From Christensenella sp. (lineage in GTDB: Bacteria > Bacillota > Clostridia > Christensenellales > CAG-138), in the NCBI GenBank assembly GCA_034927595.1, contig JAYFPQ010000017.1, forward strand, positions 34,224-98,223: a stretch of DNA of 64,000 nucleotides, written 5' to 3'. The notes under the pieces were generated by a model. The model did no database searches. It was not told where the DNA came from and worked only from the letters and a program-made list of their open reading frames with translations. This document shows, piece by piece, positions 38,876-55,402 of this stretch. Each line of letters starts with the position of its first letter. Position 1 is the stretch's first letter. Position numbers and translations under genes: made by a program.

Positions 38876-39007
38876 AGTCCACAGGTTAGACACATCCGTA
38901 AGAATCACATGAGATATTGCTTGTTTTCCATTCAAAATCACGTATCATTCGAAATACGCAGTATGGTATAAGTGTATTTACATCATTTGTTTAGGGGAAA
39001 GAACCGT

Positions 39008-40606
39008 ATGCCGGAATACCGCATCATGATTGTGGACGACGAAACCGAGGTTCGCGAGGGCATTGCCAGCCGCGTGGACTGGAAAGCCGCCGGGTTTACG
39101 ATTGTCGCCACTGCCGAAAACGGACAGGATGCGCTGGAGAAGGCGGAGTTTCTGGATCTCGACGTCGTGCTGACGGACATCAAGATGCCGTATATGGACG
39201 GACTGACCCTCGGGGCGGAGCTGCTCAGCCGATACCCGGCAACGAAGCTGATCATCCTCTCCGGGTTCGACGAGTTTGAGTACGCCAAGGAGGCAATCAA
39301 GCTCAACGTGCTGGAGTATGTGCTCAAGCCCGTGAATGCGGACGAGCTGCTGCTGGTGTTGCAGCGGGCAAAGGCAAGGCTCGACGCGGAGTTCAACGCA
39401 AAGCAGGATATCGAGTCCCTACGCTCGCGCTACGAGCAGGCGCTGCCGCTGCTGCGGGACCAGAGCCTGCGCGAAATCCTCGCGGGGTCCGTTCCGGCGG
39501 AAGAGGTATCGCGGCTGTTCGAACTCTACGGCGTCCACCTCGATATCACAAACCCGATGATCGTCGCCGTATTCGACACGAGCGGGCAGATTCCGGCCGG
39601 GTCGATGATTACGCGGGAACTGCTGCCCGTTTCGGTGCGCGCGCTGGTGGAAGCGGCGCTGGAAGGCAAGTGCTCCTACGCTACGTTTTTGAGTTTTTAC
39701 AACGTCATCGTCGTTTCCAGCTGGGTGAGCGATCCGGTGGATCATATGATGATGGCGGCAAATGAAATCTGCGGCGAGTGCAAATCGCTCTTCGGCGTCG
39801 AGGTGACGGCGGGGGTCGGGCGCCGCTGCGGCGAGGTTTCGCTGCTGCGCGAGTCGCTCTTTGAAGCGCGTTCCGCGCTGGAATATCAGCGCGTGGTCGG
39901 TGGCGGCAAGGCGATCTATATTCGGGACGTCGAGCGCATGACGCGCCACCCCGCGACGCTGGACAGCCGTTATGAGCAGCGCCTGACCGCGGCGGTGAAG
40001 TTCGGCTCCGGCGAGCAGATTGAAACCGAGATTGGAGAGATTCTCGAAGGACTCAGCGACGCCGCGCCCGGCGACTGGAAGTACCGCGCCTATGTGACGG
40101 GCATTCTCAACGCGCTCAACCAGATCATCGCGCGCTACGACCTGCCCGCGGAAGAGGTAATGGGCGACGAAGGCATGCTGCTGTTTCAAGAGGGCGGCAG
40201 GCTGGGCGTTCCCTCACTCCAGAAAGCCCTGTTGGAGGTTTGCCTTCGCATCGGCGGCTACATGAACCAGCGCCGCTCCTCCATGGCGGGCACACTCGTA
40301 GAAAAGGCGAAGCAGTTCATTCTCAAGCACTTTGCAGACGTCGATCTTTCCGTCGAGAAGGTCTGCGAACACCTGCACATCAGCCAGTCCTACTTTTCCT
40401 CCATCTTCAAGCAGGACACGGGGCGCAGCTTTGTGCAGTATTTAATCGATCTTCGCATGGATCACGCCGCGGAACTGCTGCGTGAGTCCGACGAAAAGAC
40501 CTATGTCATTGCCCAGCGGGTCGGCTACGACGAGCCGAACTATTTTTCCTACGTGTTTAAACGCAAATTCGGCGTATCACCCTCGCAATTCCGAAACGGG
40601 AACTAG
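39008..40606 (+). CDS. YesN-type response regulator (REC + AraC-family HTH)
   Basis: Track ORF is 38972..40606 (GTG). The ATG at 39008 (MPEYRIMIVDDE) follows AGGGGAAAG. REC motif DVVLTDIKMPYMDG. C-terminal AraC HTH: GYDEPNYFSYVFKRKFGVSPSQFR. Confidence 0.88.
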   Translation: MPEYRIMIVDDETEVREGIASRVDWKAAGFTIVATAENGQDALEKAEFLDLDVVLTDIKMPYMDGLTLGAELLSRYPATKLIILSGFDEFEYAKEAIKLNVLEYVLKPVNADELLLVLQRAKARLDAEFNAKQDIESLRSRYEQALPLLRDQSLREILAGSVPAEEVSRLFELYGVHLDITNPMIVAVFDTSGQIPAGSMITRELLPVSVRALVEAALEGKCSYATFLSFYNVIVVSSWVSDPVDHMMMAANEICGECKSLFGVEVTAGVGRRCGEVSLLRESLFEARSALEYQRVVGGGKAIYIRDVERMTRHPATLDSRYEQRLTAAVKFGSGEQIETEIGEILEGLSDAAPGDWKYRAYVTGILNALNQIIARYDLPAEEVMGDEGMLLFQEGGRLGVPSLQKALLEVCLRIGGYMNQRRSSMAGTLVEKAKQFILKHFADVDLSVEKVCEHLHISQSYFSSIFKQDTGRSFVQYLIDLRMDHAAELLRESDEKTYVIAQRVGYDEPNYFSYVFKRKFGVSPSQFRNGN

Positions 40607-40683
40607 CGCGTTTCGTGCGGCCTAAGAGGGAAGGACAAACCGGCAAACATCAGCCGGCGCATACCATACGGGAGTGGATCGAA

Positions 40684-42495
40684 ATGGGAAAGTCACTGGT
40701 TCGTGCGCTTTCCGGCAGGCTCGTTTCGCAATCGGAGCGTTCGAGCATCCGCTATACGGTCTTTCTGTCGTTCACCATCAGCGCAATCGCCGCGATGGTG
40801 CTGACCGGCATGCTGTTCTATTTCAATTTTTCACGTCAGTTGGAGCAAACGATCCAGAGTGAGAACGAAATGCTCGTCAAGCAGGTCAACCAATCGGTCG
40901 ATACGTACCTGCGCGACATGCTCCGGCTCTCGAACTCCATCTACTACAACGTCATCAAGAATGTGGATATCGACAGCGACCCGATCAACTCCGAATTGCA
41001 GCTGCTCTACGGAACCTATTCGAGCTATGTGGAGAACATCGCTCTGTACGATCTGGATGGAAACCTGCTCGCCACCGCGCCGCCCGCGCTCAGTAAGCCC
41101 GGCGTGGACGTCCGGCAGGCGCAGTGGTTTCAAAAGGCGCTCAACCGAACGGAGAACCTGCACTTTGCAACGCCGGAGATTCAAAATCTGTTTGTCAACG
41201 CGGAGCATCGCTACATCCGCGTGATTTCGCTTTCCTCCGCCGTGGAAATCACGAGCGGAAAGAGCACCATGGGCGGCGTGCTGCTGATTGACCTCAAGTA
41301 CAACAGCCTTACGGAGCTGTTTGACCACATGTCGCTGGCAAATGGCGGCTATCTGTACCTGATGGACGCCAACGGAGAATTGATCTACCATCCGGAGCAG
41401 CAGCTGATCGCCTCGGGACTCGCGAAGGAAAACAACCTCGTCGCGGCAACGTATGACGACGGCGGGCATCAGGAGACGTTTAACGGAGAAGCGCGTTCCA
41501 TCATCGTGCGCACGGTCGGGTACACCGGCTGGCGCATTGTCGGCGTGATTCCGCAGCAGGGCATCGTGCTCAATCAGCTGGACAATGTGCTCATCATCAT
41601 TGCAATATTCCTGATGCTGTTTGACATCGTCATTCTGATCAATTCGTTTATCTCAACCAAGCTCACCGCGCCGATCAAGCACCTGGAGGAGTCCGTCCAG
41701 ACGCTGGAATACGGGGACGCGAGCAAGGCCATCTATCAGGGCGGTTCCTACGAGATCCGTCACCTCGGCGCGTCGATTCAGGGCATGGTCGACCAACTCC
41801 AGCAACTGACGGACGACATCGTCCGCGAGCACGAACAAAAGCAGAAGAGCGAGCTGGACGCGCTGCAAAGCCAGATCAACCCGCATTTCCTCTACAACGC
41901 GCTCGACATCATCGTTTGGATGATTGAGCGGGAGCAGCCGCGCGAAGCGGTGAACATCGTCACTGCGCTGGCGAGGCTCTTCCGCATCAGCCTCAGCCGC
42001 GGCAAGAACATCATTCCCGTTCGGGACGAGCTGGAGCACGTGCAGAACTACCTGACCATTCAGACGATGCGCTATAAGAACAAGTTCTCCTATGTCATCG
42101 AGATGGATGACGAGGTGAAGGACCTCGCGATCATCAAGCTCGTTGTCCAGCCGCTCGTGGAAAACGCAATCTACCACGGCATGGACTTTATGGACGGCGA
42201 CGGAATGATCACGATCTCGGCAAAGATCGTTGGCGACGAGCTGCATCTGACGGTCGCGGACAACGGCCTCGGCATGAAGCCGGAGGTCGTCGAGCGATTA
42301 TTGGTTGAATACACACCCGTCTCCAAAGGTTCCGGCGTCGGGCTGAAGAACGTCAACGAGCGCATCAAACTCTACTTTGGCGACCGCTACGGGGTACTGA
42401 TCAAGAGCGAACCGGACGAGGGCACCTGGATTACGCTTGTGCTGCCGATCATTCGCTACGAAACAGAGGAGGCGAGCGACGTTGGGCAAAAGTGA
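40684..42495 (+). CDS. YesM/LytS-type sensor histidine kinase (two TM segments, extracytoplasmic domain, HAMP, His_kinase, HATPase)
   Basis: Track ORF is 40615..42495. The ATG at 40684 gives MGKSLVRAL. TM1 is FTISAIAAMVLTGMLFYF. A ~270-aa external domain is followed by TM2 (LIIIAIFLMLFDIVILI). H-box QINPHFLYNALD. ATPase motif GSGVGLKNVNERI. Confidence 0.88.
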   Translation: MGKSLVRALSGRLVSQSERSSIRYTVFLSFTISAIAAMVLTGMLFYFNFSRQLEQTIQSENEMLVKQVNQSVDTYLRDMLRLSNSIYYNVIKNVDIDSDPINSELQLLYGTYSSYVENIALYDLDGNLLATAPPALSKPGVDVRQAQWFQKALNRTENLHFATPEIQNLFVNAEHRYIRVISLSSAVEITSGKSTMGGVLLIDLKYNSLTELFDHMSLANGGYLYLMDANGELIYHPEQQLIASGLAKENNLVAATYDDGGHQETFNGEARSIIVRTVGYTGWRIVGVIPQQGIVLNQLDNVLIIIAIFLMLFDIVILINSFISTKLTAPIKHLEESVQTLEYGDASKAIYQGGSYEIRHLGASIQGMVDQLQQLTDDIVREHEQKQKSELDALQSQINPHFLYNALDIIVWMIEREQPREAVNIVTALARLFRISLSRGKNIIPVRDELEHVQNYLTIQTMRYKNKFSYVIEMDDEVKDLAIIKLVVQPLVENAIYHGMDFMDGDGMITISAKIVGDELHLTVADNGLGMKPEVVERLLVEYTPVSKGSGVGLKNVNERIKLYFGDRYGVLIKSEPDEGTWITLVLPIIRYETEEASDVGQK

Positions 42496-43402
42496 GAAAT
42501 CCGCGTTTATTCTGATTACGGCGCTGCTCGTGCTGCTGATCGGCTTTATTCTGATTCGCGCGCTGACGAGCCACGACGCGGTGCGCGTTTACCGCGTTTC
42601 GATCATTACGGACGACGTGCAGGGGGACTACAGCGCAAACGTGCTCAAGGGTCTCGACCGCGCGGCGCGGGACTATAACATCGACCTGCAGGTCATTGCC
42701 CTGCACAGCGGCATGACGACGGAGCAGCAGAAGAACTCGCTCGAGCGCGAGCTGGAGTCGGAGACGGATGCGATCATCCTCAACCTCCAGCAAAACCCGA
42801 ACCTCTCCGAACAGCTCGACCTTTCGGCCATGTCGGTGCCGGTCATTTCGCTTGGCACCGCCTGGGACGGCTCTTCCTCCATTCGCAGCATATCGACAGA
42901 CGACGCCGCCATGGGGCGCATGCTTGCCGAGGAGATGATTAAGGACGGGGTTACCTCCTGCGCGATTCGCGCGAGCCTGGACAACGCGCGTGTTCGCCTG
43001 CGGGAACAGGGGTTTATTGAAGCGATCGAAGCGGCCGGCATTCCGTATGCGAGCGAGTGGAACCCGGAGTCAATTGCCTGGGGCAGCTTTCCCGCCGGGG
43101 TTGCCGTAGCCGCGCTGGACGAACCGTCGCTGGAGATGGTGCTTGACCAGCGCATGCTCAATCGTCCCGCGCTGTATGGAATCGGCTACACAAACACGTT
43201 GCTGTCGAATCTGGAGTCCGGCGTCATCCGCCGCCTGATTGTGGAGGACGACTACGCGATGGGGTATCTTGCGCTGCAGAGCGCCGTGGACGCGATTGAA
43301 AACCACGGAAAGGTTTACGAACAGATCTTGGAGTGCTATGTGGCCGACGCGGAGCACCTCTATCAGGAACCGCTGAAGCACATTCTGTTTCCAATTTCGT
43401 AA
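42482..43402 (+). CDS. membrane-anchored type-I periplasmic-binding-protein-fold protein (sensor-associated)
   Basis: Track ORF is 42437..43402. A TTG at 42482 follows GAGGAGG and overlaps the kinase stop. The N-terminal uncleaved-looking TM segment is AFILITALLVLLIGFILI. An RbsB/LacI-core-like domain follows (RVSIITDD...DAIILN...VPVISLG). The start is uncertain. Confidence 0.7.
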   Translation: MGKSEKSAFILITALLVLLIGFILIRALTSHDAVRVYRVSIITDDVQGDYSANVLKGLDRAARDYNIDLQVIALHSGMTTEQQKNSLERELESETDAIILNLQQNPNLSEQLDLSAMSVPVISLGTAWDGSSSIRSISTDDAAMGRMLAEEMIKDGVTSCAIRASLDNARVRLREQGFIEAIEAAGIPYASEWNPESIAWGSFPAGVAVAALDEPSLEMVLDQRMLNRPALYGIGYTNTLLSNLESGVIRRLIVEDDYAMGYLALQSAVDAIENHGKVYEQILECYVADAEHLYQEPLKHILFPIS

Positions 43403-43453
43403 GAGCATTCACTCGGATCACGTTTTTCAGATATACAGAATGGAGGGATCGCG

Positions 43454-44479
43454 ATGGAATGGAAGCGCGCCGCGCGCTCAGCCCTGGCGCTTGTAATGGT
43501 TTTGGCAAGCTTGCCTCTGCTGGGGTGCTCCCGCGGGAACACCGAGCAGGGACCTTCGATTAGCCTCGGCGTGGCGATTTACAACGGGGACGACACGTTC
43601 ATTTCGAACATGATGCTCTCGCTCACCGAGATTGCCGCGCGCTACGAGCAGGACACGGGTACCCGCGTCTACGTGAACCTCACGGACGCGCAGGAGAACC
43701 AGACGAACCAAAACAAGCAGATCGACCGGTTCGTTTCAATGAACTACGACGTGCTCTGCGTCAACCTCGTGGATCGCACGGACGCTTCCTACACGATTGA
43801 CCGCGCAATGGACGCGGACATCCCGGTGGTCTTCTTTAACCGCGAGCCGGTGCAGGAGGACCTCCAAAAATGGGATCGAATTTACTACGTCGGCACCGAC
43901 CCGGCGGAGAACGGGCGGCTGGAGGGGCAGATCGTCGTGGACGCCTACAAGGCGGACCCCGCGCGCTTCGATAAAAACGGCGACGGCATCGTGCAATACA
44001 TCATCATCGAGGGCGAAATTCGCCATCAGGACGCGATGATTCGAACGGAGGTATCCGTCCAAACGCTCAAGGACGCGGGCATTGAACTCGAAAAGCTCGA
44101 CGGCGGCATCGCAAGCTGGGTGCGCAGTCAGGCGGCGGCACTCTCCGATCAGTATTTTGAAAAGTACGGCGATCAGATTGAGCTGATCATCTGCAACAAC
44201 GACGACATGGCGCTTGGCGTAATCGACACGGTCGAGCGGCGGGGGCTTTCGTTTAACAACATCGTCGGCATCGACGGGACGCCCGCGGGGCTAGCCGCCG
44301 TGGAGCAGGGCAAGATGCTTGGCACGGTGGTCATCGACTACGCCACGCAGGCCAAGCTCATCTTTGACCTCGCCAGCACCCTCGCGGTGGACGGCGACCC
44401 GAAGCAGGTCGTCGATATGGGCGCCGACCGAACGGTACGCGCACCAATGTATGTGGTAAAGGCGGATTTCATTCCGTAA
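43454..44479 (+). CDS. MglB-like galactose/glucose-binding lipoprotein paralogue (in the sensor operon)
   Basis: 341 aa. Lipobox LPLLGC. ISLGVAIYNGDDTFIS..., NKQIDRFVSMNYDVLCVNLVD, DIPVVFFNREP and ICNNDDMALG align by eye with the downstream MglB. Confidence 0.8.
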   Translation: MEWKRAARSALALVMVLASLPLLGCSRGNTEQGPSISLGVAIYNGDDTFISNMMLSLTEIAARYEQDTGTRVYVNLTDAQENQTNQNKQIDRFVSMNYDVLCVNLVDRTDASYTIDRAMDADIPVVFFNREPVQEDLQKWDRIYYVGTDPAENGRLEGQIVVDAYKADPARFDKNGDGIVQYIIIEGEIRHQDAMIRTEVSVQTLKDAGIELEKLDGGIASWVRSQAAALSDQYFEKYGDQIELIICNNDDMALGVIDTVERRGLSFNNIVGIDGTPAGLAAVEQGKMLGTVVIDYATQAKLIFDLASTLAVDGDPKQVVDMGADRTVRAPMYVVKADFIP

Positions 44480-44516
44480 CGGCGGGTTTTGCCGCGTTTC
44501 GCCGGACGAAACCGGA

Positions 44517-44537
44517 GAAATTCGGTTTGATTCCTGG
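44517..44537 (+). promoter_or_regulatory. second copy of the conserved box GAAATTCGGTTTGATTCCTGG
   Basis: The exact 12-mer TTCGGTTTGATT (44521..44532) is shared with 38841..38852. CGCCGGA(C/T)GAA precedes both copies (44500..44510 here). Confidence 0.5.
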
Positions 44538-44574
44538 AAATCGGGATTTTATCGGTAAAATCGCGAAAAAATGG

Positions 44575-44604
44575 ATTGTTGCCGACTCGAAAATCTATTA
44601 TAAT
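44575..44604 (+). promoter_or_regulatory. candidate promoter upstream of mglB
   Basis: TTGTTG (44575..44580), an 18-nt spacer, TATAAT (44599..44604). Confidence 0.4.
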
Positions 44605-44645
44605 CCTAGCAAGAACTAAAACAATTCCTCCGAAATCACAGTAGA

Positions 44646-44681
44646 TTTTTCATGGATTCAGCGAGAATTTTGCATGGAATT
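44646..44681 (+). repeat. direct repeat TTTTTCATGGATT / ATTTTGCATGGAATT (CATGGA cores 22 bp apart)
   Basis: CATGGA occurs at 44651..44656 and 44673..44678 with similar T-rich flanks. Spacing is two helical turns, as expected for an AraC-type activator site. Confidence 0.45.
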
Positions 44682-44698
44682 TACAATTGATCGCCGTT

Positions 44699-44736
44699 AA
44701 GATGTGGATGTACCCGGATGACGGGTATCACATCTT
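44699..44736 (+). promoter_or_regulatory. long leader stem-loop just upstream of the mglB RBS
   Basis: AAGATGTGGAT(G)TACCCG-GATGA-CGGGTATCCACATCTT-type pairing: 16 bp with one bulge. It ends 8 nt before AGGAGG. Confidence 0.6.
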
Positions 44737-44757
44737 ATCTTATCAGGAGGAAATCAA

Positions 44758-45780
44758 ATGAAGAAGATTCTTGTGTTCGTGTTGCTTCTTGCGTTGGCTT
44801 TCAGCACGATCGCCTGCGCAGCGCCGGCAGCCGCACCCGCCGAAGAGGCGAAGACGGAAGCCGCTACCGAACCCGCCGCTGAACCCGCTGCCGCGGTTAC
44901 CACCTACAAAGTAGGCGTCAGCATCTACAAGTTTGACGACAACTTCATGACCCTCTATCGTCAGGAACTCGAAAGCTACTTCAAGAGCCTTGAGACCGAC
45001 GCTGTGAAGTACGAAGTTACGATCGTAGACGGCAAAGGCGACATGGCCGAGCAGACCAATCAGGTTGACACGTTCCTTGCTCAGGGCGTGGATGTGCTGA
45101 TCGTGAACCTCGTTCAGTCCTCCTCCGCTGCCACCATCACGGACAAGGCCAAGGCCGCCGGCGTGCCGGTTGTCTACATCAACCGTGAACCCTCCGCCGA
45201 CGATATGAAGGCCTGGGACAAGATCTGCTACGTTGGTGCGGATGCCCGCCAGAGCGGCACCTACCAGGGCGAGATCATCGCGAGCCTGCCGAACAAGGGC
45301 GACCAGAACGGCGACGGCGTGGTCAGCTACGTCATGATCATGGGCGACCCGGAGAACGTGGATGCCCAGTATCGTACCGAGTTCTCCATCAAGGCGCTCA
45401 CGGACGCCGGCATCAAGGTCGAAGAGCTGTTCAAACAGCGCGGCGACTGGGCGCAGGAAAAGGGCCAGGAACTGGCCGCGAACGCTCTTGCGCAGTTCGG
45501 CGATAAGATCGACGTCATCTTCTGCAACAACGACGGCATGGCGCTTGGCGCCTACCAGGCGATCGTCGCCGCGGGCCGTACGGTTGGCACGGATATCTAC
45601 CTGGTCGGCGTTGATGCGCTGCCCGAGTGCGTCCAGATGGTTAAGGACGGCACCATGACCGGTACCGTGCTCAACGACCACATTGGACAGTCCCACACCG
45701 CGGTTGACGCCGCCGTGAAGTACATCATGGGCGAGACCGTTGACACCTACCTCTGGGTTGACTACCAGAAGGTTGCGTAA
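44758..45780 (+). CDS. mglB: galactose/glucose ABC transporter substrate-binding lipoprotein
   Basis: 340 aa. Lipobox FSTIAC, then an Ala/Glu/Pro tether. YKVGVSIYKFDDNFMTLYRQ, VDVLIVNLV, VPVVYINREP, FCNNDGMALG and VGVDALPE closely track E. coli MglB as I recall it. Confidence 0.88.
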   Translation: MKKILVFVLLLALAFSTIACAAPAAAPAEEAKTEAATEPAAEPAAAVTTYKVGVSIYKFDDNFMTLYRQELESYFKSLETDAVKYEVTIVDGKGDMAEQTNQVDTFLAQGVDVLIVNLVQSSSAATITDKAKAAGVPVVYINREPSADDMKAWDKICYVGADARQSGTYQGEIIASLPNKGDQNGDGVVSYVMIMGDPENVDAQYRTEFSIKALTDAGIKVEELFKQRGDWAQEKGQELAANALAQFGDKIDVIFCNNDGMALGAYQAIVAAGRTVGTDIYLVGVDALPECVQMVKDGTMTGTVLNDHIGQSHTAVDAAVKYIMGETVDTYLWVDYQKVA

Positions 45781-45809
45781 GCGACTTCGCATCGGACTAC
45801 TGGAACAAA

Positions 45810-45844
45810 GGAATTGCGTGCGGTATCATGCCGCACGCAATTCC
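45810..45844 (+). promoter_or_regulatory. intercistronic 14-bp stem-loop after mglB (no U-tract)
   Basis: GGAATTGCGTGCGG-TATCATG-CCGCACGCAATTCC, a perfect stem. Confidence 0.7.
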
Positions 45845-45883
45845 GCATATCATCGTTCAACTCGAACAAGGGGATAACAAGCA

Positions 45884-47398
45884 ATGCAGGAATACGTGCT
45901 AGAGATGAAGGGCGTATGCAAGTCCTTTCCGGGCGTTAAGGCGCTCGACATGGCTCAATTGCATCTTCGGCCCGGAACCGTCCATGCGCTGATGGGAGAA
46001 AACGGCGCGGGGAAATCCACGCTCATGAAATGCCTGTTCGGTGTTTACAAGATGGACGAAGGGGAAATCATTTACAACGGCGAACACGTAAAGATTGACA
46101 ACCCGTTTGACGCGCTGCAAAAAGGAATCGCGATGGTGCACCAGGAGCTGCAGCCGATTCCAGAGCGGTCGATCGCGGAGAACATCTATTGCGGGCGCTA
46201 TCCGGAAACGAAAATTCTCGGTCTGATTCGGACCGTCAACCATAAGAAAATGTACGAACAGACCGGGGCGCTGCTCAAGAGCCTCGGCCTGAACTTTGAC
46301 CCGAAGGCCAAGCTCGGCTCGCTCTCGGTTTCGCAGATGCAGCTCGTGGAAATCGCCAAAGCGGTGTCCGCAAACGCGAAGATCGTGATCATGGACGAGC
46401 CGACCTCCTCGTTGACGCGAAACGAGGTCGACACGCTGTTTTCGATTATCCACCGCCTCAAGGAAAGCGGCTGCTCGATTATCTATATCTCCCACAAGAT
46501 GGAGGAGATCCTCCAGATTTCGGATGAAGTCACCATCATGCGGGACGGGAAATACATTGGTACATGGACGAGCAAGGAGCTCACAACGGATCTGATCATC
46601 ACCAGAATGGTCGGCCGCGAACTGACCAATCTGTATCCGAAACGTGAAAACGTGCCCGGGGACGTGATTCTTCAGGTCGAGGACTTTACCTCGATTCACC
46701 CGAAATCCTTTCGCAACGTCAATTTCGAGCTGCGCAAGGGCGAAATCCTCGGCGTTTCCGGCCTGGTTGGCGCGCAGCGCACGGAGCTCATGGAGGGTAT
46801 CTTCGGCCTTCGCGCGAGCGAACGCGGAACGATTACCTACCTTGGCAAGAAACTGCACATCACACGCCCGAAGGCGGCAATTGAAAACGGTATCGCGCTA
46901 CTGACCGAGGATCGGCGCGGCAGCGGCATCTTTGGCGTACTCAGCGTGGCGGACAACGTATCCGTCGCATCGCTGCAGCAATATCTGCTATTTCGCATCA
47001 TGCTCAACGACAAGAAGATCGCGCAGCTCGTCAAGGACAACGTGAAAAAACTCAGCATCAAAACGCCGAGCATCAAAACGCCGATTCAGTCGCTTTCCGG
47101 CGGCAACCAGCAGAAGGTCATCATCAGCCGCTGGCTGGCAAACGATCCGGACGTGCTGATTATGGACGAACCGACGCGCGGCATTGACGTTGGCGCGAAA
47201 TACGAAATCTACTGCATCATTGCGGAGCTCGCCAAGCAGGGCAAGAGCATCATCATGATCAGCTCGGAGATGCCGGAGCTCATCGGCATGGCGGACCGCA
47301 TTATGGTTATGTGCGACGGGCGGGTAACCGGCTTTGTCGACGGCGAACAAATGAACCAGGAAACCATTATGGAGCTGGCCACGCGCTTTGCTTCCTGA
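45884..47398 (+). CDS. mglA: galactose/methyl-galactoside ABC transporter ATP-binding protein (duplicated ABC domains)
   Basis: 504 aa. GENGAGKSTL, LSVSQMQLVEIAKA, VIMDEPTSSL, and a second LSGGNQQKV / LIMDEPTRGID. Confidence 0.9.
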   Translation: MQEYVLEMKGVCKSFPGVKALDMAQLHLRPGTVHALMGENGAGKSTLMKCLFGVYKMDEGEIIYNGEHVKIDNPFDALQKGIAMVHQELQPIPERSIAENIYCGRYPETKILGLIRTVNHKKMYEQTGALLKSLGLNFDPKAKLGSLSVSQMQLVEIAKAVSANAKIVIMDEPTSSLTRNEVDTLFSIIHRLKESGCSIIYISHKMEEILQISDEVTIMRDGKYIGTWTSKELTTDLIITRMVGRELTNLYPKRENVPGDVILQVEDFTSIHPKSFRNVNFELRKGEILGVSGLVGAQRTELMEGIFGLRASERGTITYLGKKLHITRPKAAIENGIALLTEDRRGSGIFGVLSVADNVSVASLQQYLLFRIMLNDKKIAQLVKDNVKKLSIKTPSIKTPIQSLSGGNQQKVIISRWLANDPDVLIMDEPTRGIDVGAKYEIYCIIAELAKQGKSIIMISSEMPELIGMADRIMVMCDGRVTGFVDGEQMNQETIMELATRFAS

Positions 47399-47413
47399 TT
47401 TACGGAGGACGAC

Positions 47414-48406
47414 ATGAGAGAAAAGCAATCTTTCGGCAATTTTCTGCTCAACAACGCAATGATCATTTTCATGATCGGCGCGGCAATCGTGGTTGGGCTT
47501 TTGCGATCCACGTTCTTTTCGATGTATAACTTTAAAAACCTCATCAGCAACACCGCGATTCGGTTCATCATCGCCGTCGGCGTCTCCGGCTGCCTGATTA
47601 CGAAGGGCACCGACCTCTCCGCCGGACGAACCGTAGGCCTCGCGGCCTGTATCGCGGCTACGTTCATGCAGGCGGCGGACTACTCCTCGAAGGTGTATCC
47701 GAACCTTGGCGAACTGCCGATGCTATTGGTACTGCTGGGCGTCATTTTTGTCTCCGTCCTAGTCGGCCTGCTCAATGGCCTGGTCATCGCGCTGCTCAAC
47801 GTACCGCCGTTCATCGCGACGCTTGGCATGCAGACCATTGTCTACGGCGCGTGCCTCGTCTTCACCGGCGCGCAGCCGATTGGCGGCCTTCGCAAGGATT
47901 ATACGAACCTCTCTTCGGGGTCGATCTTCAACGTTCAGATGTTGCCGTACCTCGGCTTGTTTGCGCTGATCATCGGCGTGATCATGTGGTTTGTTTACAA
48001 CAAGACGCCGCACGGTAAATACATGTACGCCATCGGCGGCAACGAGAACTCCGCCGAGGTTTCCGGCATCAACACCGTGAAAACGAAGCTCATCATCTAC
48101 ATGACCGCCGGTCTGATGTACGGCATTGCGGGATTCCTGCTTGGCGCGAAGTCGGGCGGCGCGTCCGTGAACATGGGCATGGGCTACGAACTCGAGGCGA
48201 TTGCGGGTTGTACGATCGGCGGCGTTTCCACCAACGGCGGCGTCGGACGCATCAGTGGCATCCTCATTGGCGTATTGGTGTTTGAACTGCTCAAGATTGC
48301 CATGCAGTTCATGGGCGTTGAAACTTCCTATACCTATATTGTACAAGGTATCGTCATCATCATCGCCGTTGCGCTCGACATTCGCAAGTACGTTGCAAAG
48401 CGGTAG
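47414..48406 (+). CDS. mglC: galactose/methyl-galactoside ABC transporter permease
   Basis: 330 aa. Typical RbsC/MglC texture (TDLSAGRTVGLAA..., PPFIATLGMQ, GGTSxxGG-like GGVSTNGGVG). Confidence 0.88.
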   Translation: MREKQSFGNFLLNNAMIIFMIGAAIVVGLLRSTFFSMYNFKNLISNTAIRFIIAVGVSGCLITKGTDLSAGRTVGLAACIAATFMQAADYSSKVYPNLGELPMLLVLLGVIFVSVLVGLLNGLVIALLNVPPFIATLGMQTIVYGACLVFTGAQPIGGLRKDYTNLSSGSIFNVQMLPYLGLFALIIGVIMWFVYNKTPHGKYMYAIGGNENSAEVSGINTVKTKLIIYMTAGLMYGIAGFLLGAKSGGASVNMGMGYELEAIAGCTIGGVSTNGGVGRISGILIGVLVFELLKIAMQFMGVETSYTYIVQGIVIIIAVALDIRKYVAKR

Positions 48407-48411
48407 TATAT

Positions 48412-48609
48412 ATGGAGCAGAAGAACGACAACCAGTGGGACGGTAAGCGACCGGACCCCATCACGCAGGTCAAGGAAGGCTGGTATGAAAAGCTGCTTGC
48501 CCGCGTACCGCTGACGGTGAAATCGCTTAACATCATCATTGCAATTCTGTTTCTGCTGCTCGTTGCGGCGCTCGTGATCGGCACGCTCAAGGGAAACGGA
48601 ATCCTATAA
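48412..48609 (+). CDS. 65-aa tail-anchored membrane protein, unknown function
   Basis: Starts 6 nt after mglC. A hydrophilic N-terminus precedes a single C-terminal TM segment (IIIAILFLLLVAALVIG). The RBS is weak. Confidence 0.4.
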   Translation: MEQKNDNQWDGKRPDPITQVKEGWYEKLLARVPLTVKSLNIIIAILFLLLVAALVIGTLKGNGIL

Positions 48610-48656: not shown

Positions 48657-48689
48657 CGCAAAAGCCACCCGGTAAGGGTGGCTTTTGCG
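48657..48689. terminator. hairpin 1 of a tandem pair (bidirectional terminator)
   Basis: CGCAAAAGCCACCC-GGTAA-GGGTGGCTTTTGCG, a perfect 14-bp stem. Confidence 0.75.
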
Positions 48690-48873: not shown

Positions 48874-49821
48874 TTACAGTTCGAAAATGCGTTTGTAATT
48901 GTCGTCTATGGTCTGGACTTCCGCGGCGGTGAGTTCCCAGTCGCCCGCTTTGGCGTTTTCAATCGCCATTTCCGGCGTGGTCGCGCCCATCAGTGCGCAG
49001 GTGATGCCGGGCTGGGCGAGCACCCAGTTGATCGCGACTTCCGGAATGGTTGCGCCGCGTTTGTCGCCAATGTCCTTCAGAATCTTGAGCAGCTCCTGCG
49101 CCTTGCTCCAGCCGGGTTCCTCAAAGCAGTTGTAGAACCCGACGCGCTGCTCCTTGCCGCCGACCGCGGGCTTTTCGAGCTTGCCGGAGAGAATGCCGCC
49201 GCCCAGCGCGCCATAGGTGACGCAGCCGATGTTGTTCTTGCGGCAGAAGTCGACAACTCCGTTGTTCAGGCTGACCTGATTGAGCAGGCTCAGCGGCGGC
49301 TGGCAGCTGACGATACCGGCCAGCTCGATGCCAACCTGCATCTGTTCCGGCGAGAAGTTGGAGACGCCAACCTCACGGCAGAGGCCTTCCTTCTTCATCT
49401 TGGCGAGCTCGATCAGCGCGCCTTCGATGCCGAAGTTCGCGTCCGGCCAGTGAATCATGTACAGGTCGATGTAGTCCGTCTGCAGGCGCTTGAGCGACTG
49501 CTCCATCTCCCAACGGACGAGCTTCGGGCTCAGGCACTTCACGTACTCGCCCGCGATGCGGTGAATGCCGCACTTCGTCGCGAGGCAGACCTTGTCCCGG
49601 CGACCCTGAATTGCTTTGCCGACCGCGATTTCGGACTCGAAATGCGGGCCGTAACCCGGCGCGGTGTCGACCATGTTGATGCCGACGTCGATGGCTGCCT
49701 GAATGGCCTTGATGCCCTGATCGACGTCCACCTCGCCGAAGAAATCGTTGCCAAGCGCCCAGGTGCCCTGACCGACGACCGAAACCTTCAGACTGCTGTT
49801 TCCAAGCTGTTTATACCGCAT
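48874..49821 (-). CDS. aldo/keto reductase
   Basis: 315 aa. MRYKQLGNSSLKVSVVGQGTWALG, DTAPGYG, HWPD; typical AKR. Confidence 0.88.
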   Translation of the reverse strand: MRYKQLGNSSLKVSVVGQGTWALGNDFFGEVDVDQGIKAIQAAIDVGINMVDTAPGYGPHFESEIAVGKAIQGRRDKVCLATKCGIHRIAGEYVKCLSPKLVRWEMEQSLKRLQTDYIDLYMIHWPDANFGIEGALIELAKMKKEGLCREVGVSNFSPEQMQVGIELAGIVSCQPPLSLLNQVSLNNGVVDFCRKNNIGCVTYGALGGGILSGKLEKPAVGGKEQRVGFYNCFEEPGWSKAQELLKILKDIGDKRGATIPEVAINWVLAQPGITCALMGATTPEMAIENAKAGDWELTAAEVQTIDDNYKRIFEL

Positions 49822-50622: not shown

Positions 50623-51753
50623 ATGAAGAAATTGGTTCTGATCGTTCTGAGCATGCTCATGGTTCTTTCGATGTTTGCTTGCCAGAACACGCAACCGGCA
50701 GCGACGACCGAAGAGGCTCCCGCAGCAGCTGCTGCGACCGAAGCCCCCGCCGCTGAAGCGGCAGCCCCGGCGGAGAAGACCACCGAGGGAATGAAGATTG
50801 CTTACTTCGTTTCCACAATGGCCAACGAGTTCCACCAGGCGCGTGCCGCGGCAGCCATCAAGTATGCCAAAGAAAAGTATGGCGCCGAAGTCACGATCCT
50901 CGATGGCAAGTCGGATGACAACACCATGATCAACAACGTCGATATGCTTGCTACCTCCGACTATGATGCGGCGGTGCTGCATGTCTGGCAGCCGGATGCG
51001 GTCGCTCCCCTCGTGGAGAACGCAATTGATGCCGGCGTAGCCATGATGACCTTCTTCAGCCCGCTCGCGGACACCGGCATCCCGGTCTTCCGTTCGGACG
51101 AAGCAGGCGGTTCCTTCGCGATGGGCGCCAGCGCTGCGGAGCAGTGGGTTGCCGCGCATCCGGACAAGCCGGTCGTTACCGTTCAGCTTGGCTGGCCGGA
51201 TCACACGGAAGTGAAGAGCGGCCGTACCGATCCGTTCGTTGCCGGTATTGAGAGCGTTGTTGGCGCGGGCAACTACACCAACCTCGGCTGCATCGATTCC
51301 AAGGGCAGCGCGGACGCGACCAAGGAAGCAATGGCAAACATCCTGATCTCCAATCCGGAAGTCAACATCATCTACTCCGAAGCGGGCGACCTCACCCCGG
51401 GCTGCATGGCGGCTCTCGTGGATGCCGGCAGAGGCACGATGGACAACGGCGTACCCAAGACGGAAATCGTCGTGAGCGTCGACTGCCCGGTTAGCGAACT
51501 CAAGTCGATCTACGATCCCAGCAGCTCGCTGAAGATGTCCCTCGGCCTCCCGCCGATTCAGACGTCTGAAAAGATCATCGACATCATCGTCGGCGTCTAC
51601 CTTGGCGAAATCCCGCAGAAGTCGGTTCCCGCTGAGGAACTCTTCGGTGAAGTCTACCCGGTCGACTACTACAAACTGAAGCTCGCGGACGTCATCACCT
51701 GGTACAACACGCAGTTTGGCACCAGCCTGGTGGAAGCGGATATCATGGGCTAA
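50623..51753 (+). CDS. sugar ABC transporter substrate-binding lipoprotein (type-I PBP, RbsB-like)
   Basis: 376 aa. Lipobox LSMFAC and an Ala/Glu/Pro tether, then MKIAYFVSTMANEFHQ... RBS AGGAGGAAG. Confidence 0.85.
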   Translation: MKKLVLIVLSMLMVLSMFACQNTQPAATTEEAPAAAAATEAPAAEAAAPAEKTTEGMKIAYFVSTMANEFHQARAAAAIKYAKEKYGAEVTILDGKSDDNTMINNVDMLATSDYDAAVLHVWQPDAVAPLVENAIDAGVAMMTFFSPLADTGIPVFRSDEAGGSFAMGASAAEQWVAAHPDKPVVTVQLGWPDHTEVKSGRTDPFVAGIESVVGAGNYTNLGCIDSKGSADATKEAMANILISNPEVNIIYSEAGDLTPGCMAALVDAGRGTMDNGVPKTEIVVSVDCPVSELKSIYDPSSSLKMSLGLPPIQTSEKIIDIIVGVYLGEIPQKSVPAEELFGEVYPVDYYKLKLADVITWYNTQFGTSLVEADIMG

Positions 51754-51780
51754 CAACAAGATAGGTAAATCGCGAATCGC

Positions 51781-51810
51781 TTGGGAGGAGTCTAACTAGG
51801 CTCCTCCCAA
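51781..51810 (+). promoter_or_regulatory. intercistronic 10-bp stem-loop after the binding-protein gene
   Basis: TTGGGAGGAG-(10 nt)-CTCCTCCCAA, perfect arms, no U-tract. Confidence 0.65.
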
Positions 51811-51836
51811 GAAATGGATTGGATGGAGACAAGTCA

Positions 51837-53327
51837 ATGGAAAGTAATGTGTTGGAGATCAAGGGGCTGGTCAAGGATTATCCGGGCGTACGCGCGGTGA
51901 ACGAAGTCAGCTTCGAGATCAAGCGAAATGTGGTGCACTGCCTGGTTGGCGAAAACGGGGCGGGCAAATCCACGTTGATTAAGATACTCACTGGCGCCTG
52001 CGAGCGGACCTGCGGCGAAATCACGCTCAACGGCGCGGACTATTGCGCGAGAAACCCGAAGGAAGCAAGAGAAAAGGGAATCAGCACGCTGTTTCAGGAG
52101 CTGAACGTCGTCGACCAATTGACGGTGGAAGAGAACCTGACCCTCGGCATCGAAGACACGATTTGCGGGTTTCTGCGTAAGACGGACAAGATCAAGAAGA
52201 TCATTGCCGTCCTAAAGGATCTGGAACCCAGCATCAACCCCAAGGAGCGGGTTTCCCGACTCAGCGTTGCCAAGAAGCAGATCATTGAAATTGCCAAGGC
52301 GGTTGCGGCGGAGACGGATATCATCATCATGGACGAACCGACGGCGGCGCTCTCGGAATCGGAAATCAACCGACTGTTTACGATTATAAAACGACTGCGC
52401 GATAAAGGCGTTACCGTTATCTATATATCCCATCGACTGGATGAGATTTTTACACTGGGGGATTACGTCACCGTCATGCGAGATGGCAAGCACGTTGCGA
52501 CCAAGCCGATTGCAGAGGTGAAGGATCGCTCGGAGCTGGTGCAGCTCATGATTGGCAAAACCGTCATCGAGGCATATACGCCAAAGGAGAAACCGGCGGA
52601 AGAACTGCTGCTCGAGCTCAAGGACGTTTGCAACCATAAACTGCGCAATGTTTCGCTCCGGGTCAACCGCGGCGAGATCGTCGGGTTCTACGGCCTGATT
52701 GGCGCCGGCAAAACCGAGCTTGCCCGCGCGATCTACGGCGCGGATGAGTACTCCGGCGAAATCCGGCTCAATGGCGAAAAACTCGGCAAATCGCCGGAGA
52801 AGACCATCCGCGCGGGCATAGCGCTGGTTCCGGAAGAGCGCCGGACGCAAGGGCTCTTTACGCTCTTAACCATCAAACAGAACATCTCCGCGATGAACCT
52901 GACGCGCATCTCGAAGCTCGGCATGATCAATGCCATGCAGGAGCGCAACACCGCGAAGGATTACATTGCCAAGCTCAATATCAAAACGGACTCCATGGAC
53001 AAGGAGACCTCGAAGCTTTCCGGCGGAAATCAGCAAAAGGTCGTCTTCTCCAAGTGCCTGTTTGCCAACGCCGACCTGCTGATTCTGGACGAACCCACGC
53101 GCGGAATCGACGTTGGCGCCAAGGCGGAAATCTACGCGATTGTTCGCGGCCTTGTGGAACAAGGAAAAACCATCCTGTTCTTTTCGTCTGAACTACCTGA
53201 GATCCTCAACTCCTGTGATCGGATATTCCTGCTGTATGAGGGTGAAATCAAAGCAGAACTTCAGAACGGAATTGATATTAACAGCCAGGATATCATTCAC
53301 ATCGTTACGGGAGGAACTGCATCGTGA
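51837..53327 (+). CDS. sugar ABC transporter ATP-binding protein (duplicated ABC domains)
   Basis: Track ORF is 51819..53327 (TTG). The ATG at 51837 gives MESNVLEIKGL. GENGAGKSTL, LSVAKKQIIEIAKA, IIMDEPTAAL, LSGGNQQKV, LILDEPTRGID. Confidence 0.9.
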   Translation: MESNVLEIKGLVKDYPGVRAVNEVSFEIKRNVVHCLVGENGAGKSTLIKILTGACERTCGEITLNGADYCARNPKEAREKGISTLFQELNVVDQLTVEENLTLGIEDTICGFLRKTDKIKKIIAVLKDLEPSINPKERVSRLSVAKKQIIEIAKAVAAETDIIIMDEPTAALSESEINRLFTIIKRLRDKGVTVIYISHRLDEIFTLGDYVTVMRDGKHVATKPIAEVKDRSELVQLMIGKTVIEAYTPKEKPAEELLLELKDVCNHKLRNVSLRVNRGEIVGFYGLIGAGKTELARAIYGADEYSGEIRLNGEKLGKSPEKTIRAGIALVPEERRTQGLFTLLTIKQNISAMNLTRISKLGMINAMQERNTAKDYIAKLNIKTDSMDKETSKLSGGNQQKVVFSKCLFANADLLILDEPTRGIDVGAKAEIYAIVRGLVEQGKTILFFSSELPEILNSCDRIFLLYEGEIKAELQNGIDINSQDIIHIVTGGTAS

Positions 53328-54346
53328 GCAAACAATTAGAGGGAAAGAATCTGTCGCTCGCAGGCAAGATCAGCAACGAGTCCTACCTCAACCGTGTGAT
53401 GTTTCTGGTACTGATCGCGCTGTTTGGCATTGCGAGTCTGACGATTGGAAATTACTTTTCTACGGCGACGGCGCTGAACCTGATTGCCAACAACTGGTAC
53501 ATCGTGATCCTCGGCGTTGGAGTCACGTTCCTGCTCGTGTCCGGGCATCTGGATATGTCCGTCGGCGGCATCGTCGCGATGGCGGGCGTGCTCTCCGCGT
53601 ATTTTTGCCAGCCGGCAAACGAAGGCTTTTCCGAGTTGGGACAGGGCCTCGGCCTGCCATATGGGGTTGCGGTTGTCCTGACGCTGGTCTGTTGCCTCGG
53701 AATTGGCGCACTCAACGCGCTGTTCATCGCGAAGATGCGCGTGGCGTCGATCATCGTGACGCTGGGAACCATGTCGATTGCGCGCGGCATCGGCCAAGTG
53801 GCTGCCCTCGGCGCGCAGCGCAGCGCGGGCATGCCGGACATCTTTGGTGTCATCGGCAACGTGCCGCTCTTCGGGCCAATCAAGATTGCCGCGGCCATTG
53901 CCGCAATCCTCGTGGTCATTGCGCTCTACATTGAGAAGAACACGACCTTCGGACGCAGGACCTACCTCATCGGCGCAAATCGCGAAGCTGCGCGGCTCTC
54001 CGGCATCAAGGTGGAACGGCACATCGCGCTCTTGTACCTGCTCAGCTCTTTGCTCGCGGGTATTACGGGAATTCTGCTCGCCTCCGAAATGAAGGCCGGC
54101 ATCTCCACGCGCGGTACCGGGTTTGAGTTCAGCGCGCTGGTGGTTACGCTGCTTGGCGGCGCGAGCATCGACGGCGGCGTCGGCTCCGTGCTGGGCATGG
54201 TGATTGGCGCCATGATTCTGGGCGTCGTCTCCTCGGCGGCGTACAGCATGCTGCTGCGTCCGGAATGGCAGTTCATTCTGAAAGCGACGGTAACGTTCCT
54301 GGCAATCATTGCGCAGCGCTACCTGCTGGATCGAAGAAGCAGATAG
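53324..54346 (+). CDS. sugar ABC transporter permease
   Basis: 340 aa RbsC-like polytopic protein. ATGA-type overlap with the ATPase gene. Confidence 0.85.
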   Translation: MSKQLEGKNLSLAGKISNESYLNRVMFLVLIALFGIASLTIGNYFSTATALNLIANNWYIVILGVGVTFLLVSGHLDMSVGGIVAMAGVLSAYFCQPANEGFSELGQGLGLPYGVAVVLTLVCCLGIGALNALFIAKMRVASIIVTLGTMSIARGIGQVAALGAQRSAGMPDIFGVIGNVPLFGPIKIAAAIAAILVVIALYIEKNTTFGRRTYLIGANREAARLSGIKVERHIALLYLLSSLLAGITGILLASEMKAGISTRGTGFEFSALVVTLLGGASIDGGVGSVLGMVIGAMILGVVSSAAYSMLLRPEWQFILKATVTFLAIIAQRYLLDRRSR

Positions 54347-54385
54347 CGGGCGGGATTGAACGGACGAGTTGAAAGGATAAAAACT

Positions 54386-55402
54386 ATGTCGGCTAATTGC
54401 AATACGACAAATCTTCGAGGCGTAAAAGCCAAGAGATTGATCAAACAAATATATGTCTACGTGATTCTGGCAATCGTGGTTGCCGTACTGAGCTTGCTCA
54501 AGGGTGACCTGTTCCAGCGAGGGAACTTCCTGTTTCCGCCGAACATTGCAAACCTCTTGCGTATGTCGGCCCCGATTCTGATGATCAGCAGCGCGTTTAC
54601 GCTGATTTTCATCACCGGCAACATGGATCTTTCCGTGGGCAGCATCCTGAGTCTGACGACCGTGGTCAACGCGATCCTGCTGCTCAACGGGTTCTCGTTT
54701 CTTACCGCGATGGTCATCGTTCTTGCTCTTGGTGTCGTGCTCGGCTTCGTCAACGGCTTTCTCGTGATGAAACTGCGCATTACTCCCGTCATCGCAACGC
54801 TGATCACGATGAACGCCTATCAGGGACTGGCGCGTTATCTGGTTCCGCCGGGAATCTCGTCTATCACGAATACGGACACGCTGACCATGCCGGAATGGAT
54901 GGGGCATTTCGCAAAAGGACAGGTGTTTCTGGGGCTTTCGTGGGCGTTTATCGTGGCGATTGCGCTGTTGATCGGTCTCGTGATTCTGCAGCGGTGTACG
55001 GTCTTTGGAAAATACCTCGTCGCGGCGGGTGGAAACCGCACCGCGGCGGAACTCTCCGGCATCAACGTGGTCAAGGTGGTCTGGGGCGTATACATTCTGC
55101 TCGGCGCGGTCTCCGCATTGGCGGGCGTTGCGCGGGCAAGCTACCTGCTCATTGGCGAGCCGTACACCGGCACTGGCGCGGAAACGGAGGCGATCATCGC
55201 CTGCCTGCTGGGCGGAACGGTGTTCTCCGGCGGCGAGGGTTCCGTGGTGAAATCGTTCGTCGGCGCGCTGATCATCGTTTGCCTGACGTTCGGACTTAAG
55301 TCCGTCATACCGGAGTACTGGCAAATGCTGGCCAAGGGCGCGGTGCTCGTGTTCGCGGTGGTGCTCAACCACCTGCTCTCCAAGGAGACCGCCGTCGCGT
55401 AA
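54386..55402 (+). CDS. sugar ABC transporter permease (second subunit)
   Basis: Track ORF is 54356..55402 (TTG). The ATG at 54386 follows GAAAGGA. RbsC-like. Confidence 0.85.
   Translation: MSANCNTTNLRGVKAKRLIKQIYVYVILAIVVAVLSLLKGDLFQRGNFLFPPNIANLLRMSAPILMISSAFTLIFITGNMDLSVGSILSLTTVVNAILLLNGFSFLTAMVIVLALGVVLGFVNGFLVMKLRITPVIATLITMNAYQGLARYLVPPGISSITNTDTLTMPEWMGHFAKGQVFLGLSWAFIVAIALLIGLVILQRCTVFGKYLVAAGGNRTAAELSGINVVKVVWGVYILLGAVSALAGVARASYLLIGEPYTGTGAETEAIIACLLGGTVFSGGEGSVVKSFVGALIIVCLTFGLKSVIPEYWQMLAKGAVLVFAVVLNHLLSKETAVA

Follow-up and report, generated by a model that had tools for sequence, protein, structure and literature searches.

The analyzed stretch of DNA, 64,000 nucleotides of contig JAYFPQ010000017.1 from Christensenella sp. 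(the window), contains eight genes on the + strand between positions 39008 and 48609 that bring together a two-component system, two binding proteins, and a sugar ABC transporter. The genes encode, in order, a response regulator (RR), a histidine kinase (HK), an anchored periplasmic binding protein (aPBP), a second binding protein (PBP2), the transporter components MglB, MglA, and MglC, and a 65-aa membrane protein. An initial annotation made from the sequence had listed a yesN-like gene, a yesM-like gene, a transmembrane (TM)-anchored binding protein gene whose start overlaps the kinase stop, and a gene for an MglB-paralogous lipoprotein, with mglB-mglA-mglC and the small membrane protein gene behind them. 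All of these genes were confirmed and they are codirectional; PBP2 and the window MglB are 35% identical (E = 8e-58, BLASTP). That description was accurate, and it was refined only in the start of aPBP and in the type of the kinase sensor domain.

The RR gene (39008-40606), of the YesN type, stands first in the four-gene module across related loci. It encodes 532 aa with a receiver domain (Pfam Response_reg, 9e-25), a GGDEF_2-like linker (1.5e-6), and an AraC-type helix-turn-helix (HTH) domain (HTH_18, 5e-22), which is the YesN architecture. The HK gene (40615-42495, with an alternative ATG possible at 40684) encodes a YesM-type kinase. Two TM helices bracket an extracellular dCache domain of ~250 aa (Pfam dCache_1, 1.3e-27), and behind them lie a HAMP domain, the His_kinase core (PF06580, 1e-27), and HATPase_c. 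The AlphaFold2 (AF2) model of HK residues 70-322 has a pLDDT of 88, and its top PDB folds are the dCache ligand-binding domains of Mlp24, PctA, and PscC, which are of the chemoreceptor type. LytS (5XSJ) is not in the top 50 fold matches of this model, and LytS is absent from the PDB sequence search at E ≤ 0.01. The dCache sensor domain is 42-60% identical across the family.

The aPBP gene (42482-43402) encodes a 306-aa protein with an anchored type-I binding-protein fold (Pfam Peripla_BP_4, 6e-19). The aPBP homologues are uniformly 306 aa long, and the real start in the window is therefore the TTG at 42482, ten bases past a GGAGG ribosome-binding site. This start overlaps the HK stop (42493-42495) by 14 nt. 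The PBP2 gene (43454-44479) begins 51 nt past aPBP with no hairpin or terminator in the gap, and it encodes a 341-aa lipoprotein of the MglB/GGBP family with an LLGC lipobox. A gap of 278 nt separates PBP2 from mglB (44758-45780), which encodes the lipoprotein substrate-binding protein (SBP) of the transporter (Pfam Peripla_BP_4, 4e-53; NCBIfam MglB, 8e-68). The double ATPase of this CUT2 transporter is encoded by mglA (45884-47398; two Pfam ABC_tran domains; NCBIfam MglA, 1.3e-204), with a score of 680 bits that lies under the NCBIfam cut-off of 828. The permease gene mglC follows (47414-48406; NCBIfam MglC, 5e-107; Pfam BPD_transp_2).

The two sensor-side binding proteins are of different types. 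BLASTP detected no similarity of aPBP to either PBP2 or MglB. In the AF2 model of aPBP (pLDDT 83), residues 3-32 form a TM helix that leads into a binding-protein fold with two lobes. Among solved structures, aPBP comes nearest to GanP of Geobacillus stearothermophilus, both by profile (2.7e-20) and by Foldseek (ranks 1-3, TM-scores 0.69-0.71), at 18-20% identity. CbpD, AraP, and XylFII come next in the PDB profile search and in Foldseek; the match to XylFII (5XSJ/5XSS) is remote, with a profile value of 3e-11, TM-scores of 0.68-0.69, and 16-18% identity. A profile search of 1.8 billion cluster representatives at E ≤ 1e-30 gathered an aPBP family of 343 clusters at 50% identity, for which NCBIfam holds no model. 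An N-terminal hydrophobic anchor is present in 143 of 149 sampled members and a lipobox in one.

The best-conserved aPBP positions among 150 representatives are S40, G57, A61, Q83, E90, P120, G145, L148, G233, G235, G261, Y262, and a C-terminal L-F-P. The canonical pocket positions, aligned at 13-20% identity, give a different picture. In 142 of the 150 representatives, Gly occupies the position of RbsB D215 (the G-x-D Asp), and the window protein reads GIGYT at this site; GanP retains the Asp (GFD). N190 of the N-D motif is replaced by Leu, the D89 and R90 positions are variable, and the first pocket loop is hypervariable with indels. The family evolves about twice as fast as PBP2. The canonical sugar-contact residues of aPBP thus appear mostly lost. 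The idea that the pocket Asp is lost strictly where PBP2 is present was considered and not upheld, because representatives P0229 and P0178 keep the Asp beside PBP2.

PBP2 has a different character. Its closest solved relative in the PDB search is MglB 8fxu (9e-70). The NCBIfam MglB model scores PBP2 at 219 bits and the window MglB at 229 bits, both under the 420-bit equivalog cut-off, and by these scores the two proteins are family members rather than equivalogs of E. coli MglB. The pocket was scored against the E. coli MglB sequence, whose numbering was checked in the script, using the GGBP contacts D14, F16, N91, K92, H152, D154, R158, W183, N211, D236, and N256 together with the Ca2+ loop. 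The window PBP2 keeps 10 of these 11 sugar-contact residues (K92 is a conservative Arg) and the Ca2+ ligands. Every PBP2 orthologue keeps D14, F/Y16, N91, H152, D154, R158, W183, N211, D236, and the Ca2+ ligands, and position 92 is Arg in all of them compared to Lys in E. coli. N256 is Ile in the window clade, Met in the L011-L017 clade, and Asn in all others; this change may mark a shifted sugar preference of the sensor in those lineages. The window transport MglB has Asn in place of H152. Most orthologues have a signal peptide ending in Cys, and the strict lipobox pattern is found in 14 of 19 distinct N-termini. From its residues, PBP2 looks fully competent to bind sugars of the glucose/galactose type.

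In a single neighbor-joining tree built without support values, all sensor-side PBP2 copies form one clade, and the SBPs of the accompanying transporters fall in at least three other clades of the family, one of which holds E. coli MglB. The idea that PBP2 is a recent local copy of mglB was rejected, since the sensor-side copies cluster apart from the transporter proteins in this tree. PBP2 is predicted to be a separate lineage dedicated to the sensor. RefSeq labels aPBP a 'substrate-binding domain-containing protein' and PBP2 a 'galactose ABC transporter substrate-binding protein'. The second label makes PBP2 a transporter SBP, yet its position, conserved among the loci, speaks for PBP2 being part of the sensor.

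That position was established in the synteny survey that the initial annotation had suggested. A scan of one genome per species with the aPBP alignment returned nine loci, all in Clostridia metagenome-assembled genomes labelled Christensenella, Christensenellaceae, Oscillospiraceae, or Eubacteriales, and the order RR-HK-aPBP-PBP2 is found in nine of nine. A metagenome scan anchored on the HK sensor domain alone added 29 further loci with identity down to 42%. Protein and record look-ups identified four cultured carriers, Butyrivibrio fibrisolvens 16/4, Clostridium tertium, Agathobacter rectalis DFI.5.28, and Clostridium estertheticum pCF009-b, the last with a gene order identical to that of the window. 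In 40 of the 47 related loci, the gene behind aPBP is PBP2, either complete or cut off by the contig end. Among the remaining seven, L019 shows the PBP2 start before a contig break, five fragments end early, and L021 is a real exception. The juxtaposition is not due to chance; it recurs in these 40 loci and in L019.

The placement of the transporter separates PBP2 from the uptake genes. An ABC transporter lies downstream of the module, as in the window, in 15 loci and upstream in another 15, where the order is SBP-ATPase-permease-RR-HK-aPBP-PBP2. The four genes keep their order on either side. PBP2 stays by aPBP wherever the transporter is, which argues that it travels with the sensor and not with the transporter. 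Unlike the window mglB, the PBP2 gene is not placed in the transporter operon beside mglA and mglC. HK runs into aPBP by 14 nt in the window, by 4 nt in the A. rectalis copy, and by 1 nt in that of C. tertium, and the aPBP-PBP2 gaps are 12-51 nt across the loci. Pairwise identities between loci are 23-32% for aPBP, 40-66% for PBP2, 42-60% for HK, and 34-53% for RR. Gene order and sequence together indicate that the four genes are inherited as one unit, in genomes of Christensenellales-like bacteria, Oscillospiraceae, Lachnospiraceae, and Clostridiaceae.

L021 (metagenome contig OJRC01002452.1, 1-5253) has an HK sensor domain that is 45% identical to that of the window, adjoins a rhamnulokinase gene, and has no PBP2. 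Its single anchored binding protein is RhaS/AlsB-like and keeps all three canonical residues (D/N/D, in TVDSD, GLNES, and IACDS). L021 looks like an ordinary rhamnose-type three-component relative of the module.

Two records of module genes deserve a remark on annotation. In L039 (Butyrivibrio fibrisolvens 16/4, FP929036.1) and L040, RR, HK, aPBP, and PBP2 are each called as two or more fragments. These splits are probably sequencing frameshifts rather than real pseudogenes, and they account for many 'partial' kinases in the protein search. The C. tertium aPBP (L045, 9001-9975, JBNOOS010000001.1) is named 'geranylgeranylglyceryl/heptaprenylglyceryl phosphate synthase' in its NCBI record; this name is very likely a misannotation, apparently derived from a weak match to PcrB (PF01884).

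The 278-nt spacer ahead of mglB contains a direct repeat (44645-44680, + strand) with copies ATTTTTCATGGATT at 44645-44658 and ATTTTGCATGGAAT at 44667-44680 and a 22-bp period. The proximal copy covers the -35 position, and 17 nt past it lies a -10-like hexamer, TAAGAT (44698-44703, + strand), read from the sequence. The repeat pattern has only two matches in the 64 kb, and two or more matches arose in 0 of 100 shuffles. No second pair was found in the 64-kb window even when two mismatches were allowed. The repeat and its spacing are conserved in L001, L003, L004, L005, and L010, and GTTAAGATG is conserved in the same loci together with a 5'-UTR hairpin (44710-44727, + strand). Repeats of the same type (ATTTT-N-YATRG, ~22 bp apart) are found upstream of the transporter SBP genes in L009, L020, L025, L028, and L031, and these distant loci include both gene orders. 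AraC-type activators usually bind over the -35 position. We propose the repeat at 44645-44680 as the binding site of the phosphorylated RR.

A consensus scan of the region found 6 promoter-like sites compared to 4.8 expected and 15 terminator-like sites compared to 11.3 expected, with nothing above chance, so the promoter assignment rests on conservation. The claim that mglBAC is regulated separately from the sensor genes is supported by a promoter region of its own with a conserved repeat unique in the window. Autoregulation of the sensor operon via the repeat is not supported. No pair lies upstream of RR or PBP2, and a single half-site with two mismatches occurs on the other strand at 38925. 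The lack of a repeat upstream of RR suggests that the sensor operon is probably not autoregulated through it.

Other elements flank the repeat. Behind PBP2 there is a weak terminator-like hairpin, CGGCGGGTTTTGCCGCG then TTTCG (44480-44503, + strand, read from the sequence); L003 and L005 have a clear intrinsic terminator at this position (CTGCCC-N4-GGGCAG then T7). A perfect TATAAT at 44599-44604 lies ~40 nt upstream of the repeats with a weak -35 sequence, TTGTTG, and a 17-nt spacer, and TATAAT boxes are present in the matching spacers of L001, L003-L005, and L010. This site may be a further promoter for basal expression of mglB. The scan also identified a perfect 14-bp GC-rich hairpin in the mglB-mglA gap (45810-45844, no strand assigned) that lacks a T-run on the + strand. 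It looks like an element that stabilizes or attenuates the mRNA and that would fix how much binding protein is made relative to the membrane components.

We think it fairly probable that the locus specifies a sensor of extracellular sugar with four components, which activates the neighboring glucose/galactose-type CUT2 ABC transporter. In the proposed mechanism, PBP2 would be the sugar receptor, a lipoprotein with a near-complete E. coli MglB-type pocket and Ca2+ site. The TM-anchored aPBP, with its GanP/XylFII-like fold, would be made in a fixed ratio with the kinase, a coupling predicted from the overlap of the HK and aPBP genes, and would act in the membrane as a co-receptor or adaptor on the kinase dCache domain. 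Sugar-loaded, closed PBP2 would dock on the aPBP-kinase complex and raise its autokinase activity. The phosphorylated AraC-type RR would then bind the two repeats over the -35 position and activate mglB-mglA-mglC and the small membrane-protein gene, and the hairpin behind mglB would keep the binding protein in excess of the membrane components, a role suggested by the title of Wu et al. 2022 (in the references of PMC11847368). The core of the initial annotation, a YesM/YesN sensor assisted by binding proteins that controls mglBAC, is supported by the synteny, the PBP2 clade, and the repeat at the mglB promoter, and its statement that the sensor has two binding proteins of different types holds in the 40 loci with both aPBP and PBP2.

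The residue conservation fits a heteromeric receptor, composed of the PBP2 binder and a degenerate aPBP, better than a dual-ligand receptor. A bolder version of the four-component sensor, which we offer tentatively and hold to be possible rather than probable, is a heteromeric Venus-flytrap receptor in which the non-binding anchored aPBP and the sugar-binding MglB paralogue jointly gate a dCache histidine kinase, with the aPBP clusters in gut Clostridia being dedicated pseudo-receptors. The GABA-B and T1R receptors follow the same logic, where one flytrap binds the ligand and the other transmits.

The sensor could be explained in other ways. It is unlikely that the locus is an ordinary three-component sensor in which aPBP alone senses the sugar and PBP2 is a constitutive second SBP for MglAC that provides basal or differently specific uptake. 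The nearest solved aPBP relatives, GanP, AraP, and XylFII, are bona fide sugar sensors, L021 pairs a related kinase with just one anchored binding protein, PBP2 has the full make-up of an MglB-type lipoprotein including an intact pocket, and the change of N256 to Ile in the window clade could alter its specificity. Against this reading, PBP2 is never beside mglB or mglA in the 15 loci where the transporter is upstream; it is at the far end, straight after aPBP. The single neighbor-joining clade of PBP2, set against at least three clades of accompanying SBPs, points the same way, and a sole sensor role for aPBP is hard to match with a fast-evolving family that lacks the Asp kept by both GanP and L021. 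A receptor for two ligands, in which aPBP and PBP2 bind different sugars and the kinase combines the two inputs, as has been suggested for LevQ and LevT of Streptococcus mutans, we judge to be distinctly unlikely. In its favor, LevQRST responds via two binding proteins that both affect substrate specificity (PMC3043104); aPBP retains the two-lobe fold with good model confidence, and its variable pocket could mean lineage-specific second ligands. Families with a real ligand usually conserve the pocket best, however, and the aPBP pocket positions are among the least conserved of the protein and carry indels, while the partner PBP2 and the transporters are of the glucose/galactose type throughout. 

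Direct binding of the signal by the kinase dCache domain, with both binding proteins only modulating the response or serving another purpose, seems very improbable. The good conservation of the sensor domain and its fold match to domains that bind small ligands directly speak for this explanation. Against it stand the two binding-protein genes, co-inherited with the kinase in 40 loci and translationally coupled to it, and the fact that binding proteins are known to dock on domains of the dCache-like kind, as in LuxQ, VirA, and HptS (PMC8050422). 

Several observations weigh against the four-component sensor and its division of labor between PBP2 and aPBP. The degeneracy of the aPBP pocket is read from an alignment at 13-20% identity, and aPBP still has a conserved Arg (R174, 67%) and an N/S-D/E pair at 256-257. 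The Asp is kept in 7 of 150 aPBP representatives, two of which adjoin PBP2, so the pocket loss is neither universal nor strictly linked to PBP2. The dCache domain itself could bind a ligand. PBP2 has all that a transport SBP needs and, like ChvE, could supply the transporter as well. The terminator behind PBP2 in the window is weak and some read-through into mglB is possible. The -10/-35 assignment was read by eye, and the consensus promoter scan did not flag TAAGAT.

Little is understood about extracellular sugar sensing in gut Clostridia, abundant bacteria in which many classical circuits based on the phosphotransferase system (PTS) are missing. The module is common in these bacteria, including the cultured species Agathobacter rectalis, Butyrivibrio fibrisolvens, and Clostridium tertium. 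Should PBP2 prove to be the receptor and aPBP the adaptor, the four-component sensor would explain how high-affinity glucose/galactose uptake is induced in these bacteria, and LevQRST would gain a second, independent counterpart in which a kinase depends on two binding proteins. The sensor would also provide a compact, sequence-defined sugar switch consisting of receptor, kinase, regulator, and operator for engineering anaerobes. The module is a clean test case for a heteromeric binding-protein receptor.

The gene right behind mglC (48412-48609, + strand) encodes the 65-aa protein with one TM segment, which matched no family in Pfam or NCBIfam. The gene is kept behind mglC in L001, L003-L005, and L009, and similar proteins of 54-55 aa with a shared motif are encoded behind mglC in Clostridium tertium (L045) and L041. 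These small single-TM proteins range from 54 to 68 aa (window, 48412-48609; L045, 5262-5426; L041, 3382-3549; L009, 13710-13916), no copy matches a Pfam or NCBIfam family, and the motif just ahead of the TM segment is (L/W/F)-Y-(G/E)-(K/N)-(L/I)...V-(S/T)-V-(K/E)-(S/T)-(L/M/V)-(D/N). The 65-aa protein may be an unrecognized accessory subunit of these CUT2 transporters. The terminator scan identified a 14-bp hairpin (48657-48689, no strand assigned), likely a bidirectional terminator, in the gap that separates the operon from a convergent aldo/keto reductase gene (48874-49821, - strand). Past the reductase gene, 2 kb downstream, is a second CUT2-type sugar ABC transporter (50623-55402) with a lipoprotein SBP (50623-51753), an ATPase (51819-53327), and two permease-sized open reading frames (53324-54346 and 54356-55402). 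It lacks both adjoining sensor genes and the direct repeat, and control of this transporter at 50623 by the same repeat is not supported by the window repeat scan.

The locus can be compared with several sensors that employ binding proteins. Binding proteins activate kinases in XylFII-LytS, LuxP-LuxQ, and ChvE-VirA, and they dock on dCache-like kinase domains in LuxP-LuxQ, ChvE-VirA, and HptA-HptS (PMC8050422). The XylFII-LytS-YesN system of Clostridium beijerinckii (PDB 5XSJ) resembles the window locus in having a Peripla_BP_4 sensor protein, a kinase, a YesN-type RR, and an adjacent CUT2 operon. The window RR likewise has a receiver and an AraC-type HTH, and aPBP is a Peripla_BP_4 protein coupled with the kinase gene and remotely homologous to XylFII. 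The XylFII system has the gene order PBP-HK-RR. It differs in that it has a single xylose-binding protein, whereas the window has a second protein of the MglB type, and in that the canonical pocket of the window anchored protein appears from the alignment to be mostly not conserved. The sensor domain of LytS is a four-helix bundle (PMC8050422). Membership of the window locus in the XylFII-LytS family was rejected on the kinase sensor domain, which is a dCache domain by Pfam and matches dCache folds and not LytS. The likeness to XylFII-LytS/YesN drawn in the initial annotation thus stands as a functional one but does not extend to family, as the sensor domain is dCache and the anchored protein is closest to GanP.

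The GanPST and AraPST systems of Geobacillus stearothermophilus (GanP, 6GQ0/6GT9/6GUQ; AraP, 6SW4) provide the closest relative of aPBP in both sequence and fold, and GanP binds glucose and galactose according to the PDB titles. They have one binding protein, and GanP keeps the canonical Asp that aPBP does not. These systems reportedly pair a binding protein with a kinase and a regulator, and the gene order of GanPST is P-S-T. ChvE-VirA of Agrobacterium and LuxP-LuxQ of Vibrio are alike in that a Peripla_BP_4 sugar-type protein docks on a dCache-like kinase domain, and ChvE also serves an ABC transporter (PMC8050422). They are unlike the window locus in being proteobacterial, in having a single binding protein, and in their kinase classes and outputs.

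LevQRST of Streptococcus mutans, which was not named in the initial annotation, is a precedent for a sensor with two binding proteins. Both are needed for signaling, LevQ for the integrity of the complex and LevT for substrate selectivity (PMC3043104), a division of labor that the roles proposed for aPBP and PBP2 echo. Like the window locus, LevQRST combines a kinase, a regulator, and two extracellular binding-type proteins in one operon, and its output is a neighboring sugar-uptake operon. The Lev binding-protein genes flank the two-component system, in contrast to the window order RR-HK-aPBP-PBP2, and both Lev binding proteins are reported to be membrane-associated, whereas the window PBP2 is an MglB-family lipoprotein with a lipobox instead of a TM anchor. 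LevS crosses the membrane about five times and has little sequence outside the cell, compared to the two TM helices and 250-aa dCache domain of the window HK (PMC3043104). One survey lists LevSR in the HPK7/NarL class (PMC3353171), whereas the window HK is PF06580 and its RR is AraC-type. LevQRST acts on a PTS and a fructanase, and no ABC transporter lies near it; the predicted window target is a CUT2 ABC transporter. Membership in the LevQRST family was rejected on gene order, PBP2 anchoring, and kinase and regulator class, a comparison drawn from the published descriptions of LevQRST. Searches of the plasmid collection found no Lev-like operon; they did yield the A. rectalis and C. estertheticum copies of the module.

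Full-text searches of open-access papers and preprints found no description of an RR-HK(dCache)-aPBP-PBP2 module. Its likeness to XylFII-LytS-YesN, GanPST/AraPST, and LevQRST is functional, and it falls outside both the XylFII-LytS family and that of LevQRST. These systems are precedents for the general principle; what is new is a widespread module that joins a second binding protein of the MglB family to an anchored binding protein apparently without the canonical pocket.

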